From assembly GCA_965224085.1 (NCBI GenBank), contig CBDCYI010000009.1, forward strand, positions 96,001 to 160,000: a stretch of DNA of 64,000 nt. The letters run 5' to 3'. The stretch is from Candidatus Marinacidobacterales bacterium. Its GTDB lineage: Bacteria > Acidobacteriota > Vicinamibacteria > Marinacidobacterales > SMYC01. Positions 17,584 through 23,240 of the stretch are shown piece by piece. The notes below the pieces were generated by a model, which made no database searches, was not told the DNA's origin, and saw only the letters and a list, made by a program, of their open reading frames with translations. Within the stretch, counting starts at the first letter, position 1; each line of letters starts with the position of its first letter. The position numbers and the translations under genes are program-made.

Positions 17584-19247
17584 GGGATCTCCTCCTTGTC
17601 TTCGCGTTGTGCGGGCGCGTTCGGCCGCCAGCCTCCCTTCACCCGATCGTAGGTGCCCGATCGGAGATCGGGCTTCGCCGCGATCAAGTCGGATTTCCTG
17701 ATCTTGAGGCTCGGGGTGCGGGGGAACTCGTCGACGAGCTCGAGGTAGCGCGGGATCTTGAACGGCGCGAGGTTGGCGCTGCAGTGCGCGAGAACGCGCT
17801 CGATGAGGGAATCGTCGCCACTCGAGTCCGGACTGAGCTTGAGGTACGCCTTGACCTCCTCTCCCCGGATCTCGTCGGGCACCGGCAGCACCGCCGCCTC
17901 GAGCACCTCGGGCACGCCGCGCAGTACGGACTCGACTTCGATGGCCGAGACGTTCTCGCCGCTGCGACGGACCATGTCCTTCATGCGACCCAGATACCAG
18001 AACCAGCCGTCCTCGTTGCGGTAGGCGAGATCGCCGGTGCGGAACCAGCCGCCCGGATGAAACGCGTCCGCGCTGGCCTCCGGAGTGCGAAAATAGCCCT
18101 CCAGGATTCCGGCGCCCCGGATGCAGAGCTCGCCGGTCGTGCCGTGGGGCACCGGCGAGCCGTCGGCGTCCGCCACCATCTCCTCGCGGAAGGCGACCGG
18201 GATGCCCACCGTCGCCGTGCCCGTCATCTCCTCGGCCTCCATCGGAACGTACAGCGCGCAGCCCAGCTCGGTCATCGAGAAACCCTGCCGGGCGAGCCCC
18301 CCGTAGCGCCGCTCGTACATCCGATAGTTCTCGGGGCGGTGGCTGTAGCACGACATGACGATGAGATCGTCCAGCCGATCCGCGCGCTCCGGCTGACGCG
18401 ACACCACCTCGGGAAAGTTACAGTACTGGATACGATAGCTCCGCAGCCAGTCGAGGAAACGGCTCGAGTGCATCTTGCGCGCCACGAAGGCGGTGGCGCC
18501 CTGCCAGCAACTCATGAGCGTGAGCCATTGCGCGTCAACGTAGTAGAAGGGCTGGGCAATCAGGATGCGGCGCAACCGATCCTGGAACTGCGCAGCGCCC
18601 GTGCGGCCGAACGTGAGCCAGTACCGGTGGGTCTGCATCGCACCCTTCGGCATGCCGCTCGTGCCGGAGGTGTATTGGATGTTCATGAGAGCATCGAGGG
18701 CGGGCGGCGCCGGCGCCTGGAAATCGGCCGGGGCGGCATCGACCAGGCTCTCCCAGTGGAGCGGGTAGCCGGCCAGCAGGCCTCCGGCGACGATCACGTG
18801 ATCGCGCGGCACGCTCGAGCCGCCCTCGATGGCCTCGAGCACCGGGATCAGATCGTCGGCGATGACGACGTGCGACGCATCGGAGTCGCCGAGCGTGTAA
18901 TCGAGCTCGCGCGGGGTGTAGCTGTCGTTGATGGGCACGGTGACCGCGCCGAGGGAGGCGAGCGCGAGCCAGGTCAGGGGATAGTGGCGGCCGGTGTGGA
19001 CCATCAGCCCCACACGACTCCCGGGGCCGATGCCGGTCGTGGTGAGGCCGGCAGCCGTCCTTCGCACCAGCCGCGACACCTCGCCGTAAGTGAGCTCCTC
19101 GGCGTCGTCGAAGAACACGAGGAACGCTCGCCGCGGATGCGACTGGGCGCGCACCTCGAGCAGGGCGGCGACATTAGCCGGCAGCGGCGCCGCCTCGATC
19201 GCGCGCATCAGGCGCTCGGAGTGCCACTCGGGATTCGGTCTCGACAT
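17580..19247 (-). CDS. AMP-dependent acyl-CoA ligase (CaiC-like)
   Basis: YTSGTSGMPKG, SMTE, GWFRTGD, GRMKDMVRRSGENVS, PRTPSLKI. Confidence 0.9.
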   Translation of the reverse strand: MSRPNPEWHSERLMRAIEAAPLPANVAALLEVRAQSHPRRAFLVFFDDAEELTYGEVSRLVRRTAAGLTTTGIGPGSRVGLMVHTGRHYPLTWLALASLGAVTVPINDSYTPRELDYTLGDSDASHVVIADDLIPVLEAIEGGSSVPRDHVIVAGGLLAGYPLHWESLVDAAPADFQAPAPPALDALMNIQYTSGTSGMPKGAMQTHRYWLTFGRTGAAQFQDRLRRILIAQPFYYVDAQWLTLMSCWQGATAFVARKMHSSRFLDWLRSYRIQYCNFPEVVSRQPERADRLDDLIVMSCYSHRPENYRMYERRYGGLARQGFSMTELGCALYVPMEAEEMTGTATVGIPVAFREEMVADADGSPVPHGTTGELCIRGAGILEGYFRTPEASADAFHPGGWFRTGDLAYRNEDGWFWYLGRMKDMVRRSGENVSAIEVESVLRGVPEVLEAAVLPVPDEIRGEEVKAYLKLSPDSSGDDSLIERVLAHCSANLAPFKIPRYLELVDEFPRTPSLKIRKSDLIAAKPDLRSGTYDRVKGGWRPNAPAQREDKEEIP

Positions 19248-19494
19248 CCTCCCCCAGTCGGCCGCCATTATACCGGGGTCGACTTGACAAGAACGGCTCC
19301 CGGTCGCGACTCGCTTACTTGTGGTGGTGTCCCGCTAAATCGATTTGTTCCGCAACGCCTTATGCTACTCAATGCTTCTAGGCGCTACCTTCGGGCAGGG
19401 GCTCGGGCTCGGGCACGGTGTGGAGCAGAATCCTGGTTTTCGAGACAGAAGTTAGCGAGACCCTATAACGAGTTAGCGCACCTTGCCGACGAGC

Positions 19495-19645
19495 TCATCG
19501 GTCGAGAACCACGTCGATACGTTCCAAGACTTCTTTCAATAGACGACCGGGTATCCTACTCACTTGCTCGGTGAAGAGAGCGCGATCGACCACGATGATT
19601 TTCGAAACGTTCGCTACGGAATCTTTCGGAAGACCTGATGCACGC
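19495..19645 (-). pseudogene. C-terminal fragment of a PemK/MazF toxin
   Basis: Manual translation: ASGLPKDSVANVSKIIVVDRALFTEQVSRIPGRLLKEVLERIDVVLDR*. Confidence 0.7.
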
Positions 19646-19661
19646 GGTCCGGACCGGAGTC

Positions 19662-19691
19662 TTGACGCTTCACCCAGATAACGGATAGATT
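19662..19691 (+). promoter_or_regulatory. Putative sigma70 promoter upstream of the kinase fragment
   Basis: TTGACG-N18-TAGATT, followed by GAGG and ATG at 19714. Confidence 0.45.
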
Positions 19692-19713
19692 AGCTCCACG
19701 TTAGAGGTGGCCA

Positions 19714-19783
19714 ATGGCCCTCGGTTCCGGTACTCGGCTTGGTTCCTACGAAATCCTCTCGTCTCTCGGGTCTGGAGGGATGG
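19714..19783 (+). pseudogene. Ser/Thr kinase 5' end interrupted by IS110
   Basis: MALGSGTRLGSYEILSSLGSGGM, cut within the GGMGEV motif by the IS110 right end. Confidence 0.8.
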
Positions 19784-19824
19784 ACTCCCCACGCCGGATC
19801 AAGAGAAAACGTTCTTCGTAATAG

Positions 19825-21082
19825 TCATCCGCGATTCGCTTTTTTTGTGGGCCACCGGGAGGGGTCGTAAAGGGTTCCTTGTCGAAGCATCGCAATGGCG
19901 ATGGGGAGAATGCGGTCCATGACGCCTCTGAGAGTTCTGGCATGGCTGTGGCCTCTGTCACGAAGCCGGTCGTAGTGTTCTTTGAAGTGGGGGTCGTGCA
20001 AAACGGCAGTGCGTGCCCAATGGTGGAGAGCATTATTGAGGGGCAAAGAGCGAGCTCTCCTCATCAGGATCGTTGGTCGCAACTGACCGCGCTTGCCGCT
20101 CTTTTTTGTGACAGGAGCAATGCCGCCGAGAGTCCTGAAGGCGTTGAGATTACGGAGCCGAATGGGGTCGTGGGCATAGCAGAGCACGGAGGCGAGCACG
20201 TAAGCACCGACGCCGGGCAAAGAGGCAAGAATGGCAGGGTCGGAGCAATGCTCGTCGGTTAGTGCTTGCACGCGCTTGAACCACTTCTCGAGATGCTGGT
20301 CGGAGGCACGACGATGTTGTCGAACGAGGAGCAACTGCTGGAGTAGTAGTTGGAGATGCTCGGCGGTAGCTTGAGTGGTTGCGGTTGCGACCCGGAGAGG
20401 TTTTTGTTTGAGGGTATCGAGGATCTTCTCGGGTTTTAGACGTCGGATGCGGTGTTTTTGAGCGAGGGTCTCAATGGAGTGGCGGCTAAGAGGGTTGGGG
20501 CTGGATTCGAAGAAGAGTTTTAGGAGCTCGCAGAAAAAAGCGTCGAGAGCCTTGTCCTTTGGCGCGAGCGAGACGAGGTGAGGCCAGCAACGAGTAAGGA
20601 GTTCTCGGATCTGCGAGCTGAGGGCCACATGGTTTTTGACGAGTTGGTCGCGGGTACTCAGCAACCCGCGCATAGCGAGGATCTCCGTAGGTGGGAGATG
20701 CAAGCGCTGAAAGCGGTGGCCGTCGGTTCTGAGCGAATCGGCGAGAACGAAGGCGTCTCGCCGATCATCCTTGGCGCCGCTCATAGAATGCCGGTCGCGG
20801 AAACGGTCGACCTGCTTGGGATTGATGGAGAAAATGGCGATGCCGTGGTCAAGAAAGAGCTCGACGACGGCCCCATGAGGTTTTTCGATCGCCACCGCGA
20901 TGCGCTCGGTATCTTGCGAGGTCTCTTCCAAAAGCCAGTCGATGGTTCCCGATAGTCCTTCGCGGCTATGGGGGGAAGCCTCTCTCCGCCAAGAAGTTAC
21001 CTTTGGCATCGACCACACTGGCCAAGTGAAGCCATTGACCCAGGTCGATACCGACGAAGAAGTCGTATTTGAGTTGATTCAT
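19825..21082 (-). CDS. IS110 transposase with a single frameshift in a G6 run (20970-20975)
   Basis: FVGIDLG, IEKPHG, INPKQ..RFR, AKDDRRDA, SLPGVG, GIAPVTKKSGK (Ser motif); removing one G restores a continuous frame. Confidence 0.85.
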
Positions 21083-21107
21083 GGAAGAACTCATTTCCGC
21101 CAGCGCA

Positions 21108-21242
21108 TGTGATGTTTCATCGGCCCCTGTACTGGCGCTCGAAGCGCAACTCCCCACTGGATGTCCATCACAAAAGAATTGCCGGCACGCATGTCCATTC
21201 CTGGCGCTAGGAGCGCAGGGCGACGTATGGCGTTGCCGGCAA
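21108..21242 (-). ncRNA. Putative bridge RNA upstream of the IS110 transposase
   Basis: Two internal-loop hairpins: TTGCCGGCA/TGCCGGCAA stem (21242-21179) and TGTGATG/CATCACA stem (21172-21108); loop GTGGGGAGT (21157-21149) is identical to the element right end (19792-19784). Confidence 0.75.
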
Positions 21243-21289
21243 GCTGCTGACGAAATCGAAAATAGTCCAAGCTCATCGTGATATTTGCT

Positions 21290-21637
21290 CTACCATGGCA
21301 ATCGGAGTTGTCGCGCGATGCCACGAGTTCGTGCTCGGTTTTTTCTCGGTAGTTTCGGGCGAAGCACGTCCGAGAGTTTTTCTCGAATGTAAAGAACATA
21401 AGGCGGGTCTAGATATTGACTTTGCACTTCCTGGAGCACAGGTGAAAAATAACGAAGGGAGCGAATGGGCTGCAGTGGCTCCTCATGTTCTTGTAGCTCC
21501 CTACGAGCGCAACCCAGAAGTAGGGCACACTCGAATTCGTGTAACGGGACTCCTTGGCGGTAGAGCTGCGTCGCGATGAAGCGGTCGTCGCGCCGTGGCC
21601 GTTGAATGAGCCATCGGGCCACTAGCTTGAATTTCAC
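21290..21637 (-). CDS. Hypothetical protein, mobile-element-associated type (possibly 5'-truncated)
   Basis: D...A..LY..GVPL...E.ALLLG.ARR...L.PIRSL.YF.PV..EV pattern; lower GC than neighbours. Confidence 0.55.
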   Translation of the reverse strand: MKFKLVARWLIQRPRRDDRFIATQLYRQGVPLHEFECALLLGCARRELQEHEEPLQPIRSLRYFSPVLQEVQSQYLDPPYVLYIREKLSDVLRPKLPRKNRARTRGIARQLRLPW

Positions 21638-21929
21638 GAACTCCTAGACTGCCAGAATTACTGGGGTGAATGAACCCTTGCTCCGTCACTATTTTCGCCG
21701 CCTGGCGTAGACGATAATTCTGTTGCCGAGCCGCGTGGAGTTTTCGTGAGTTGAAACCTTTCTGGTAATTTCGGTTATTTTCGCGCTGGTTCTCTCGCCG
21801 GGTTTCGTCACGGCAGGTTGGACCGCAGTAGCACTGTCCCTGGTAACATGACTTGCAGATGAAGAAAGGCATCCCACAGCTTTTGTTGCGGCAGAAAAGC
21901 CGGAGAAGAACGACAGGTTTGGTGGCCAT
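21501..21929 (-). CDS. Cys-rich putative zinc-finger hypothetical protein
   Basis: C-RNKS-C...C-KS-C..GQ-C-Y-C-GPT-C, followed by a basic helix (NRNYQ...HAARQQNYR..VTEQG). Confidence 0.55.
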   Translation of the reverse strand: MATKPVVLLRLFCRNKSCGMPFFICKSCYQGQCYCGPTCRDETRRENQRENNRNYQKGFNSRKLHAARQQNYRLRQAAKIVTEQGFIHPSNSGSLGVREIQASGPMAHSTATARRPLHRDAALPPRSPVTRIRVCPTSGLRS

Positions 21930-22269
21930 TCGGAACTCAGCAAAGTGCTGGACGATGGCCGCCCGGATGTGAGAGGCTAGCTTCAACTTGTAGTGGAGCG
22001 CCTCCTCCGGGGGCCATCCAAACATCAGAGCCCCGGTCGTTTGTAGCGGCTGGGGCTCACTATTGTCGCACAGCAGGTTCACCCTCTTCTTGCCGGCGCG
22101 AGACGATCTGACTGACTCGCGCCAAAGGCGCGAGAGGATGCTGGCCTCGCGCCAGAGGCGCGGGATGAGGCCTTGTACACAGACATTTCCTACCGACTCT
22201 TCCCGCAACACACGCTTTCGCTGCACTGATGCTTCGGCAAGCGTACAGGGGGACGTGTATCGAGCGAAG

Positions 22270-22998
22270 TCCTTTTCCCGTCTACAGGAGGCGAACCCAT
22301 CGCCGTCACCGACAGGAACTCGCGCGACCGGAGCCCGAGCTGGTCCTCGGATGGACGCCGGGTCTTTTTCGTCTCGAACCGCGGCGGGAGTATGGATCTC
22401 TGGCAACAGCGCCTCGGGGAGGAAGGGCCGGAGGGTGCTCCAGAGCTCTTGACCGTTGGTGTCGGAATGCGAAGGGCGCCTTTTCTCCCGACGGGACGAA
22501 GCTCGCTTACTCCAAGGGCCGGTTGGTGGGAAACGTGTGGCGCGTGCCCATTCTCCGCGAACGTCCAGCGAGCTGGGCGGATGCCGAGCAGATCACCATA
22601 GGCCAGGCATACACCTGGGTCAGCGACATCTCTCCGGATGGCCGGAGACTCCTGGTGAGTTCCGACCGTTCAGGGAATCGGGATATCTGGGTGCTCCCCG
22701 CCGAGGGGGGCGCTATGACCCAGTTGACGACGAATCCCACGGGTGATGGGCGCGCAAGATGGTTGCCGGACGGACGGGAGATTGCCTTCCGGTCACGCCG
22801 CAGCGGAAACCTGGATCTCTGGGTGATGCCCGCGGAAGGGGTCCCGCCCGGCAACTGACTTCAGACCCAGAACCGAATTACCACGTGTGGTGGTCTCCGG
22901 ACGGAAGGAGATCGCCTTCACCTCGTACCGAAGCGGTAACGCGGAGATTTGGGTGGTCTCGGCGGATGGGGGTGAACCGCGCCAGGTGACGGATCAGC
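22270..22998 (+). pseudogene. TolB/PD40 beta-propeller fragments (kinase C-terminal type), frameshifted
   Basis: FSPDGTKLAYS, SPDGRRLLVSSDRSGNRDIW, W.PDGREIAF.S.RSGNLDLW repeats in changing frames. Confidence 0.75.
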
Positions 22999-22999
22999 G

Positions 23000-23240
23000 A
23001 GGCGCTCGGGGAGCCGAGCGTGCCCACCAATCGGCGAAGCGCTCCCGGCATGGCCAGGGGCACGCACGAATTGGCGCCGAAGACACCCGCGTTCCCCATG
23101 GAACAGCCTTCGCCGGGGCCTCCTCTGTCGACGAGGGTGACGCTAAAGCCCTGCCTCTGTAGATACAGAGCGCAGCAGATGCCCACAATCCCCGCCCCGA
23201 TTACGGTAGCCTCACGCGACGCGTTGGTTTGCGATACCAC
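23000..23240 (-). pseudogene. N-terminal fragment of an FAD-dependent D-amino acid dehydrogenase-like oxidoreductase
   Basis: VIGAGIVGICCA..L...G..VTLVDR..PGEGCSMGNAG. Confidence 0.8.

Follow-up and report, generated by a model that had tools for sequence, protein, structure and literature searches.

An IS110-family element with a bridge RNA apparently directed at glycine-loop codons of Ser/Thr kinase genes

We analyzed a stretch of 64,000 nucleotides from a Candidatus Marinacidobacterales bacterium (GenBank assembly GCA_965224085.1, contig CBDCYI010000009.1, positions 96,001 to 160,000 of the forward strand). The whole stretch is called 'the window' below, and coordinates without a contig name refer to it. 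An earlier note, made from the letters alone, had described in this window an insertion sequence (IS) of the IS110 family abutting the 5' end of a Ser/Thr kinase gene. We conclude, with a probability of roughly 0.9, that the minus-strand unit at 19784–22247 is a defective bridge-RNA-guided IS110 element, and that its whole clade (members with at least 60% transposase identity) is specialized on the codons of the kinase glycine loop (G-loop). The anatomy of the element, its junctions and empty sites, the complementarity of its guides to their targets, the covariation between them and the distribution of insertions are all read directly from sequence.

The mechanism that we propose would proceed as follows. 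The donor loop of the bridge RNA would pair with the element's own two ends, GGGGAGT-CC at the right end (RE) and CC-TGTAC at the left end (LE), while the target loop would act as the antisense of GGN-ATG-GGN-GA(C/R)-GT, which encodes G-M-G-D/E-V, with CC as the core dinucleotide. Its left guide would pair with the sense strand of the kinase gene (the MGDV codons) and its right guide with the antisense strand (the G-M codons). Because the guides are antisense to the G-loop codons, the element would insert antisense at the second G of the ATG-GG junction, which is the same nucleotide in many paralogous kinase genes, and would split those genes. Guide drift within the clade is confined to three positions, each of them a wobble position of a target codon, and one member appears to have followed an E-to-T variant of the motif. 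What we infer is that the bridge RNA is transcribed, that the element recombines and does so through a circular intermediate, and that its two accessory genes, named X1 and X2 here, have some role.

Insertions at one codon junction of kinase genes

A whole-genome BLAST search of the assembly (6.87 Mb in 12 contigs; genome G000), in which junction alignments were used to define copy ends, identified 11 copies that share the unit found at 19784–22247. Family A, whose members are 99.8–100% identical, includes five full copies (the window copy and those at C4:1682513, C11:626414, C11:289310 and C5:803834), one internally deleted copy and two truncated copies; family B includes three copies that are 85–91% identical to family A. 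A twelfth, decayed remnant of the element is located at C9:747939. Six of the 11 copies (the window copy, copies C4a and C11b, and all three members of family B) are placed in six different kinases, exactly where GxGGM meets G[E/D/V]VY, and the decayed remnant occupies the identical codon position of a kinase as well.

The same position recurs outside this genome. A protein-pattern scan of metagenome contigs yielded 40 loci with 60–94% transposase identity (the next group reaches at most 44%), and genome contigs contributed two more (L015 at 62% and L031 at 90%), giving 42 clade loci. At least one flank is readable for 39 of these (the others being L106, L116 and L133), and all 39 are located in a kinase G-loop at the same nucleotide. 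Combined with the 11 copies from this genome, 45 of 50 readable insertions occupy the exact junction of GxGGM with G[E/D/V/T]VY in different Ser/Thr kinases, in agreement with the earlier suggestion that the bridge RNA is aimed at these codons. The insertions represent different genes, since only two pairs of events share even one flank. Among the 45 distant relatives with a readable RE flank none displays a kinase-loop flank, and the three loose GxGxxG matches in that set are all in poly-C/G flanks.

The pairs L103/L104 and L107/L109 each have one kinase flank in common (100% identity over 60 nucleotides) and differ in the other (63–68%). Either recombination has swapped kinase halves in these cases or the assembler crossed the repeat wrongly.

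The host contains 56 Pkinase matches, 52 of them above the cut-off, which bears out the earlier expectation of an expanded kinase family that offers many landing sites and suffers disruption. A pattern search of the genome returned 31 sites with a G-loop and VAIK, of which approximately 29 are real and 25 carry CC at the core position. The target derived from the guides, ACGTCGC-CC-ATTCC, is the reverse complement of GGA ATG GGC GAC GT (encoding G-M-G-D-V). That 14-mer is matched at 12 or more of its 14 positions, with a CC core, at 73 of ~13.7 million positions (both strands), and four of the six family A copies with both flanks sit at such sites. Only two kinase sites in the genome match guide A at 13 of 14 positions, and both are occupied; overall, occupied sites are richer in kinases than the 14-nucleotide match alone predicts. 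For the 33 events with both flanks, the match over the 12 non-core positions (range 7–12) is 12 in one, 11 in 17, 10 in nine, and nine or fewer in six.

Every copy has the arrangement LT-CC-TGTACGC...GGGGAGT-CC-RT, in which LT and RT denote the left and right target and the core is CC at both junctions. In the window, the kinase 5' remnant MALGSGTRLGSYEILSSLGSGGM (19714–19782) and the G at 19783, which is the first base of the next Gly codon, together form the RT (19714–19783, plus strand), and this frame is uninterrupted in the congener G055. The abutment at GGA GGG ATG G that the earlier note reported is indeed seen there, followed on the plus strand by ACTCCCCAC, which begins ACTCCCC; the kinase reading ends at that point, and its open frame stops 13 codons into the RE, the element being antisense to the kinase. 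The note regarded the missing half of the target as only reconstructable; it is in fact observed, since the kinase resumes across the element at 22248 as G-DVYRAK, and the remnant continues through 22250–22452 (plus strand; the LT) as (G)DVYRAK and then non-kinase sequence up to a stop. The true left end, CC-TGTACGC, occupies 22249–22241 on the minus strand. The two copies of the core, at 19782–19783 (GG on the plus strand, CC on the element strand) and 22248–22249, are placed by the overlap of both junctions with the empty sites.

We identified three such empty sites, and in each comparison the occupied and empty forms differ by exactly the element plus one core, with no further duplication. 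The first is the ortholog of the C4a kinase in the congener G054 (protein ...GKGGMGEVYKAKD..., DNA ACCTCGCCCAT). The second is the window locus itself, which is uninterrupted in G055, with flanks that are 98–100% identical, and reads ATGGGGGACGT. The third is a 2,570-nucleotide contig of public run X10 that joins 19781 to 22248 and thus skips 2,466 bases, with two letters that fit both sides. The empty allele that had been predicted, ATGGGCGAGGT, was therefore supported by the ortholog of the C4 copy and not by the window's own site, although the left guide matches the latter at 8 of 9 positions likewise. Contigs of the public runs (contigs only were searched) included no circular RE-LE junction.

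The uninterrupted reading frame in G055 is only 90 codons long (MALGSGTRLGSYEILSSLGSGGMGDVYRAK) and is followed by unrelated sequence, which indicates that the kinase domain had been lost before the insertion. The note needs correction on two points here, since the window copy is defective and its target was already a truncated kinase remnant. Since the element hit a relic of the motif, it is the DNA that is recognized, not a working gene. We also considered whether the split kinase might be rescued by an in-frame open reading frame (ORF) leading out of the LE; 62 codons are open in the window, 0–177 in 31 relatives and 0–10 in several of them, and we rejected this unconserved feature.

Downstream of the kinase remnant, 22229–23162 encodes PD40 (TolB-like beta-propeller) repeats across at least two frames (PF07676, E 1e-18 on 22229–22858) and looks like a decayed kinase-propeller fusion gene. 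On the other side of the element, G055 carries an additional 1,083 bp at window position 19330 (G055:C1:9357390-9358473) that encodes part of a PD40/dipeptidyl-peptidase-like protein; similar DNA is located beside the C4a kinase (C4:1680523-1681251, 94%) and at C9:67697-68453 (88%).

Bridge RNA structure and guide evolution

The bridge RNA core lies just upstream of the transposase gene, at 21108–21242 on the minus strand. We aligned 65 homologous regions (the window, 23 genome loci and 41 metagenome loci, representing the clade and relatives with 32–46% transposase identity). The alignment yields two stem-loops, both containing an internal loop as well as an inner hairpin, and comprising four helices and 26 pairs: a target-binding loop and stems at 21242–21179 and a donor-binding loop and stems at 21172–21108. 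Pairing over these 26 pairs extends to 95.3% of cells, versus 22–46% when partners are slid by 1–3 columns, and compensatory changes occur in 22 of the 26 (none of 500 shuffles was as high). The structure rests on the alignment, because a single-sequence fold of the region (z = −1.36) is uninformative alone. A pairing between the two donor guides proposed by RNAalifold (columns 111–116 with 163–168) was dropped, as those columns never covary.

In the bridge RNA of IS621, the left target guide (LTG) has the sense of the LT plus core on the top strand and the right target guide (RTG) is complementary to the core plus RT (PMC11208160, PMC11208158). Handshake guides, two bases 3' of the RTG and of the right donor guide (RDG), pair with the respective other DNA (PMC11208158). 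The guides of the element follow the register given for IS621. Its LTG, ACGUCGC-CC at 21218–21226 (minus strand), has the same sense as the LT and core of the flanks and matches the window's LT, ACGTCCC-CC, at 8 of 9 positions, as it does in copies C4a (8/9) and C11b (8/9). The RTG spans 21193–21201 (minus strand) and consists of GGAAUGG (21201–21195) followed by the handshake AC (21194–21193). Its complement CC-ATTCC is the flank found at copies C4a, C11b and C5a; the window flank, CC-ATCCC, pairs at 6 of 7 positions. Both guide words named in the earlier note, ACGTCGCCC at 21226–21218 and AATGGAC at 21199–21193 on the minus strand, are present as it described.

The left donor guide (LDG), GUGGGGAGU at 21149–21157 (minus strand), equals the last nine bases of the RE and is nearly invariant in the wider family. 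As the note had recognized, the donor loop repeats the right end, with GTGGGGAGT at 21157–21149 identical to 19792–19784. The RDG (21124–21132, minus strand) consists of GUACAGG (21132–21126), within which lies the TACAGG word on which the note had relied, and the handshake GG (21125–21124). It complements CC-TGTAC, the core and first five bases of the true LE, at all seven positions. The handshake AC after the RTG pairs with donor GT, and the handshake GG after the RDG pairs with target position 7 (C), plus position 6 in the window target. We also checked the register on distant relatives with unrelated targets: the RT predicted from each element's own RTG was found at 5 of 5 bases in 15 of 28 readable cases and at 4 of 5 in three more, and the failures cluster in a subgroup with an LTG ending in GC, to which the assumption of a CC core does not apply.

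The guides of the clade are conserved in a pattern that reflects codon structure. Of the 44 clade bridge RNAs, 36 of which are distinct, 43 confine variation in the 16 guide bases to LTG3, LTG6 and RTG3. These positions correspond, respectively, to the third base of a GAN (Asp/Glu), a GGN and another GGN codon. RTG3 is the most variable of 135 columns (1.94 bits), while LTG6 and LTG3 rank fifth and ninth. When guide bases were compared with target bases against 50,000 permutations, RTG3 covaried with its target (23 of 39, permuted mean 10.4, with no permutation as high), as did LTG3 (17 of 36, permuted mean 10.4, P = 0.003). Counting U-G and G-T wobble, LTG3 pairs in 31 of 36 cases; a non-canonical G-T pair is also reported for the natural target duplex of IS621 (PMC11208158). 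The single exception is L142, whose guide, ACGGUAC-CC, differs at three bases and which is inserted in a GGM-GTVY kinase with the LT ACGGTTC. Since this guide fits the Thr-variant kinase, the lineage can follow an amino-acid variant of the motif.

Two public runs from different studies contain RE relatives joined to other kinase G-loop codons: run X16 at window position 19780 (EIVAAIGKGG) and run X17 at 19777 (YEILAPIGAG). These contigs could reflect read-through from kinase promoters or DNA carry-over.

Element layout and accessory genes

The element read from its own strand comprises the LE tip (CC-TGTACGC), X1 (236 residues), X2 (138 residues), the bridge RNA, the transposase gene (418 residues) and the RE (GGGGAGT-CC). 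The earlier note placed it at 19714–21242; BLAST and the junctions correct this to 19784–22247, and the stretch at 21243–22247, with its two further ORFs, belongs to the element because all copies share the longer unit. That unit of 2,464 bp (2.46 kb) is exactly absent from G055 and from the X10 contig, while intact copies elsewhere in the genome measure 2,637 bp (2.64 kb) between the two CC cores. The LE, TGTACGCTTGCCG at 22235–22247 (minus strand), is the right-donor sequence as defined by the junction alignments. The predicted left end, CCTGTACT, agreed with 7 of 8 bases of this real LE, which is located 1 kb further out than had been supposed. The RE (19784–19824, minus strand), ending in the left-donor sequence at 19792–19784, contains an outward-facing −35-like TTGATC (19802–19797, minus strand) that may serve as a promoter element. 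The note expected the joined ends to complete TTGATC-N17-TACTG; the −10 would instead be TACGCT.

The transposase gene (19825–21082, minus strand) encodes a DEDD/Ser recombinase of the IS110 type, as had been proposed. In the intact copy it matches PF01548 (108.8 bits) and PF02371 (45.4 bits), both of which are also found in the window, and it scores 162.9 bits with NCBIfam NF033542, 'IS110 family RNA-guided transposase', for which the cut-off is 140. Its GIDLG, AIEKP, DDRRD and KKSG motifs align to the DEDD and Ser motifs of IS621 (8wt6, E 2.2e-7), with a weakly aligned N-terminal stretch. In the window copy an extra base in the G-run at 20970–20975 breaks the frame, a change shared by copy C11a; a comparison of frames found the gene intact in copies C4a, C11b and C5a. 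The window copy also lacks 174 bp at 21601/21602, which truncates both accessory genes: the X2 remnant (21290–21601, minus strand) has lost its first 35 codons and the X1 remnant (21602–22226, minus strand) its 3' end. Contigs of the public runs are without the extra G-run base and carry the 174 letters.

X1 was found in 36 and X2 in 35 clade loci, and neither in the 98 distant loci searched. Six members of 2.0 kb (L015, L127, L131, L132, L136 and L137) are missing X2 and are still located in kinase G-loops. The ratio of nonsynonymous to synonymous substitution rates is 0.14–0.49 for X2 and 0.28–0.58 for the Cys-rich half of X1 (0.17–0.26 for the transposase), by which measure both accessory genes are under purifying selection. 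X1 has a basic stretch and invariant cysteines at residues 117, 124, 127, 134, 138, 221 and 224 of the intact protein, and X2 is modeled as a five-helix bundle (predicted local distance difference test score, pLDDT, 79). Neither protein matched anything above threshold in Pfam, NCBIfam or PHROGs. The X2 model had no Foldseek match at E ≤ 0.001, and its best VIA-align scores (Z 6.1 to AAA+ lid domains, 5.6 to a DnaD-like fold) are below the level that is meaningful for helical bundles; in the ESM Atlas, X1 matched only unnamed clusters. A sub-threshold RepB_primase_C match was obtained for two X2 relatives (19.7 bits versus 26.1).

An X2 profile matches 1,400 cluster representatives. Two longer representatives match the X1 profile with their N-terminal half (hhalign 99.7% and 99.3%) and have X2 as their C-terminal half; because such natural X1c-X2 fusions exist, the two domains appear to work together, and our guess is a role in DNA binding or recombination directionality. 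In this genome X2 is confined to the element, save for one weak partial match. In many relatives (L105, L115, L117–L120, L122, L126, L128, L130 and L138) the N-terminal third of X1 (approximately residues 1–99) and its Cys-rich part (from about residue 95 onward) are encoded in separate frames and the point of change is common to all of them, whereas X1 is a single ORF in this genome; the switch may represent two genes, a programmed shift or decay.

Several other copies in the genome have features of their own. A 1,617-bp family A derivative (G000:C5:333084-334700, L011/L012) retains the LE, X1, X2 and the whole bridge RNA, has lost approximately the first 340 transposase codons, and occupies a non-kinase site with a match of 11 of 14; it may be a non-autonomous copy mobilized in trans. 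The family B copies (G000:C5:1762841-1765448, C11:764574-766918 and C4:1482115-1483630) have AGG where family A has the transposase ATG, and all three are in kinase G-loops; that on C11 is truncated on its LE side and adjoins an inverted 32-bp RE fragment (C11:766918-766949). The decayed remnant (G000:C9:747939-748909) represents a third lineage, 77% identical to family A. What remains of it is an LE from which 1 bp is deleted, X1, and X2 up to codon 57, where it is truncated; its LE adjoins GEVYRAR...KLDRDVAI of a frameshifted kinase. Beyond this genome, a DNA search recovered the element in four of 54 other genomes of the order; several of those assemblies are incomplete and repeats assemble badly, so this count is not proof of absence from the remainder.

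Alternative explanations and comparison with known systems

A number of observations weigh against our reading. Five of the 11 copies in this genome, all from family A, are outside kinases. The note had named the same guide in unrelated sequences as a refutation, and to that extent these copies count against it; they are nevertheless at look-alike sites that match 9–12 of 14 positions. For guide A the genome also offers 14 perfect 11-mers and three 13-of-14 matches, all of which are empty and none of which is in a kinase, while the sole 14/14 site for guide B, an intact kinase at C5, is unoccupied. Imperfect matches are the rule, with only one of 33 targets complete. LTG6 did not covary significantly with its target (17 of 36 versus a permuted mean of 13.7, P = 0.15), and the LDG corresponds to the nine bases that precede the core, leaving the core itself unpaired. 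An Rfam 15 scan of 18500–22500 (E up to 1) returned no family, and a consensus scan of the intact copy returned no sigma-70-type promoter and terminators no commoner than in shuffles. Contigs from RNA libraries X16 and X17 contain relatives that include portions of the transposase gene as well as two kinase-RE junctions; as DNA carry-over is possible in both, they are not a demonstration of transcription. Finally, metagenome contigs that span a 2.5-kb repeat may be chimeric, and our statistics treat as independent events a set of related elements that are non-independent samples.

The strongest alternative is that the guide matches a common GC-rich word, and that the kinase bias arises later, insertions into redundant kinase paralogs being tolerated and others purged, with no evolved specialization. 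Equal or better-matching non-kinase sites do exist and are empty, and the recently expanded family A has five of its eight readable copies outside kinases, while the older or single insertions elsewhere are all in kinases, as would be expected from purging. Purging does not explain, however, why guide variation is confined to codon third positions and still spells G-M-G-D/E-V, why the three changed bases of L142 follow the Thr variant, or why the target in the window is a dead 90-codon remnant. As a full account we consider it unlikely. Purging and motif specialization can act together; kinase paralogs being expendable, the bias is probably strengthened by selection on insertions once they have occurred.

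We regard it as very improbable that X1 (zinc-ribbon-like and basic) and X2 (a helical bundle) choose or co-determine the target, with the RNA match being secondary. Both are found only in the kinase-targeting clade, under purifying selection and fused in some natural proteins, and the kinase share of occupied sites exceeds that predicted by the 14-nucleotide match alone. The complementarity and wobble covariation, however, are predicted by RNA guidance and not by a protein reader, and the 2.0-kb members are in kinase G-loops without X2; the defective window copy is uninformative either way. Segmental duplication of one interrupted kinase can be dismissed for the sites examined, since in spite of the 99.8–100% identity of family A copies and of a 0.7-kb stretch of 88–94% identity near two kinase loci of this genome (C4:1680523-1681251, which immediately precedes the C4a kinase, and C9:67697-68453), the kinases on either side have distinct protein sequences as far as the junction, identity ends exactly at the CC cores, and two sites have empty alleles.

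If the clade is specialized on the G-loop as we believe, a natural lineage would be 'programmed' against a protein motif: its target would be the antisense of those codons that specify the ATP-binding glycine loop in Hanks-type kinases. To our knowledge, bridge-RNA recombinases are known as programmable tools, and their reported natural targets are repeats and other mobile elements. With a G-loop target, each genome would hold tens of nearly identical sites for insertion, spread over a gene family of which acidobacteria have a large and redundant set, and the guide alignment gives a direct view of how an RNA guide evolves under a coding-target constraint, in which the wobble positions alone move. 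For annotators, split kinase genes in these genomes would be insertion products with a predictable junction. The clade also raises the questions of how far mismatches and G-U wobble are tolerated, whether kinase repertoires are pruned, switched or shuffled, and what X1 and X2 do. A more ambitious and rather doubtful proposal is that of a gene-family-specific element whose guides co-evolve with codon usage in the kinase G-loop and also with its amino-acid variants, which acts as a reversible kinase off-switch and swaps 5' ends and promoters among paralogs, and for which X1-X2 is a new accessory or regulatory factor. The off-switch is conceivable because IS110-type insertion is exactly reversible and all copies share orientation and register; the swapping could arise through recombination between copies.

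IS110-subgroup elements are typically compact, with a single ORF and a short non-coding LE. The element described here departs from that plan: it measures 2,637 bp, and X1 and X2 separate its LE tip from the RNA. The distance from LE tip to RNA is 610–1,210 nucleotides in the clade versus 15–172 in 36 of 38 readable distant relatives (with outliers at 360 and 1,868). We compared its recombinase domains, two-loop RNA, target guides, donor guides, shared core and handshake dinucleotides with those of the subgroup and found all of them present. By every such feature, as judged from sequence comparison, it is an IS110-subgroup bridge-RNA insertion sequence, and it departs in its size, its two extra genes, its CC core and, most of all, the nature of its target.

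The closest point of reference is IS621 (Durrant et al. 2024, PMC11208160; Hiraizumi et al. 2024, PMC11208158). Both elements have a DEDD and Ser recombinase, an RNA upstream of its gene with target and donor loops, an LTG that pairs with the bottom strand and an RTG that pairs with the top strand, a core common to target and donor, and no duplication beyond that core. Unlike IS621, whose core is CT, our element has a CC core; its LDG does not cover the core, its size is 2.0–2.6 kb, it has 0.6–1.2 kb with one or two ORFs (X1, X2) between LE tip and bridge RNA, and what it targets in nature is a protein-coding motif shared by a family of paralogous genes. The wider transposase family (loci L016–L074 and L143–L182, at 32–46% whole-match identity, with three partial-match loci higher) shares the bridge-RNA scaffold of the clade and nearly identical donor loops and ends (GUGGGGAG / GUACAGG), and differs in having other target guides and targets (such as C-rich runs), no X1 or X2, and no kinase flanks. 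The literature searched, mostly listings and abstracts, yielded no report of kinase genes, or of any protein motif, as the target of an IS110 or bridge-RNA element; the clade might already be included among the supplementary target motifs of PMC11208160.

Other mobile elements exploit conserved sequences as well. In the IS1111 subgroup the guide RNA is located 3' of the gene. IS4321 and IS5075, of that subgroup, target the inverted repeats of the Tn21 family according to work cited in PMC11208160, which also cites work on IS elements that target REP (repetitive extragenic palindromic) sequences. IS4321 and IS5075 thus resemble our element as IS110-family members that exploit a short conserved sequence in many copies, and differ from it in targeting non-coding sequence at the ends of other mobile elements. 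Homing endonuclease genes, inteins and group I and II introns are found in conserved gene motifs and splice out at the RNA or protein level, which leaves the host gene functional. Like inteins and group I and II introns, the element uses as its landing site a conserved coding motif that is stable over evolution and present in many hosts; unlike them, it is not spliced out, and the kinase is left split.

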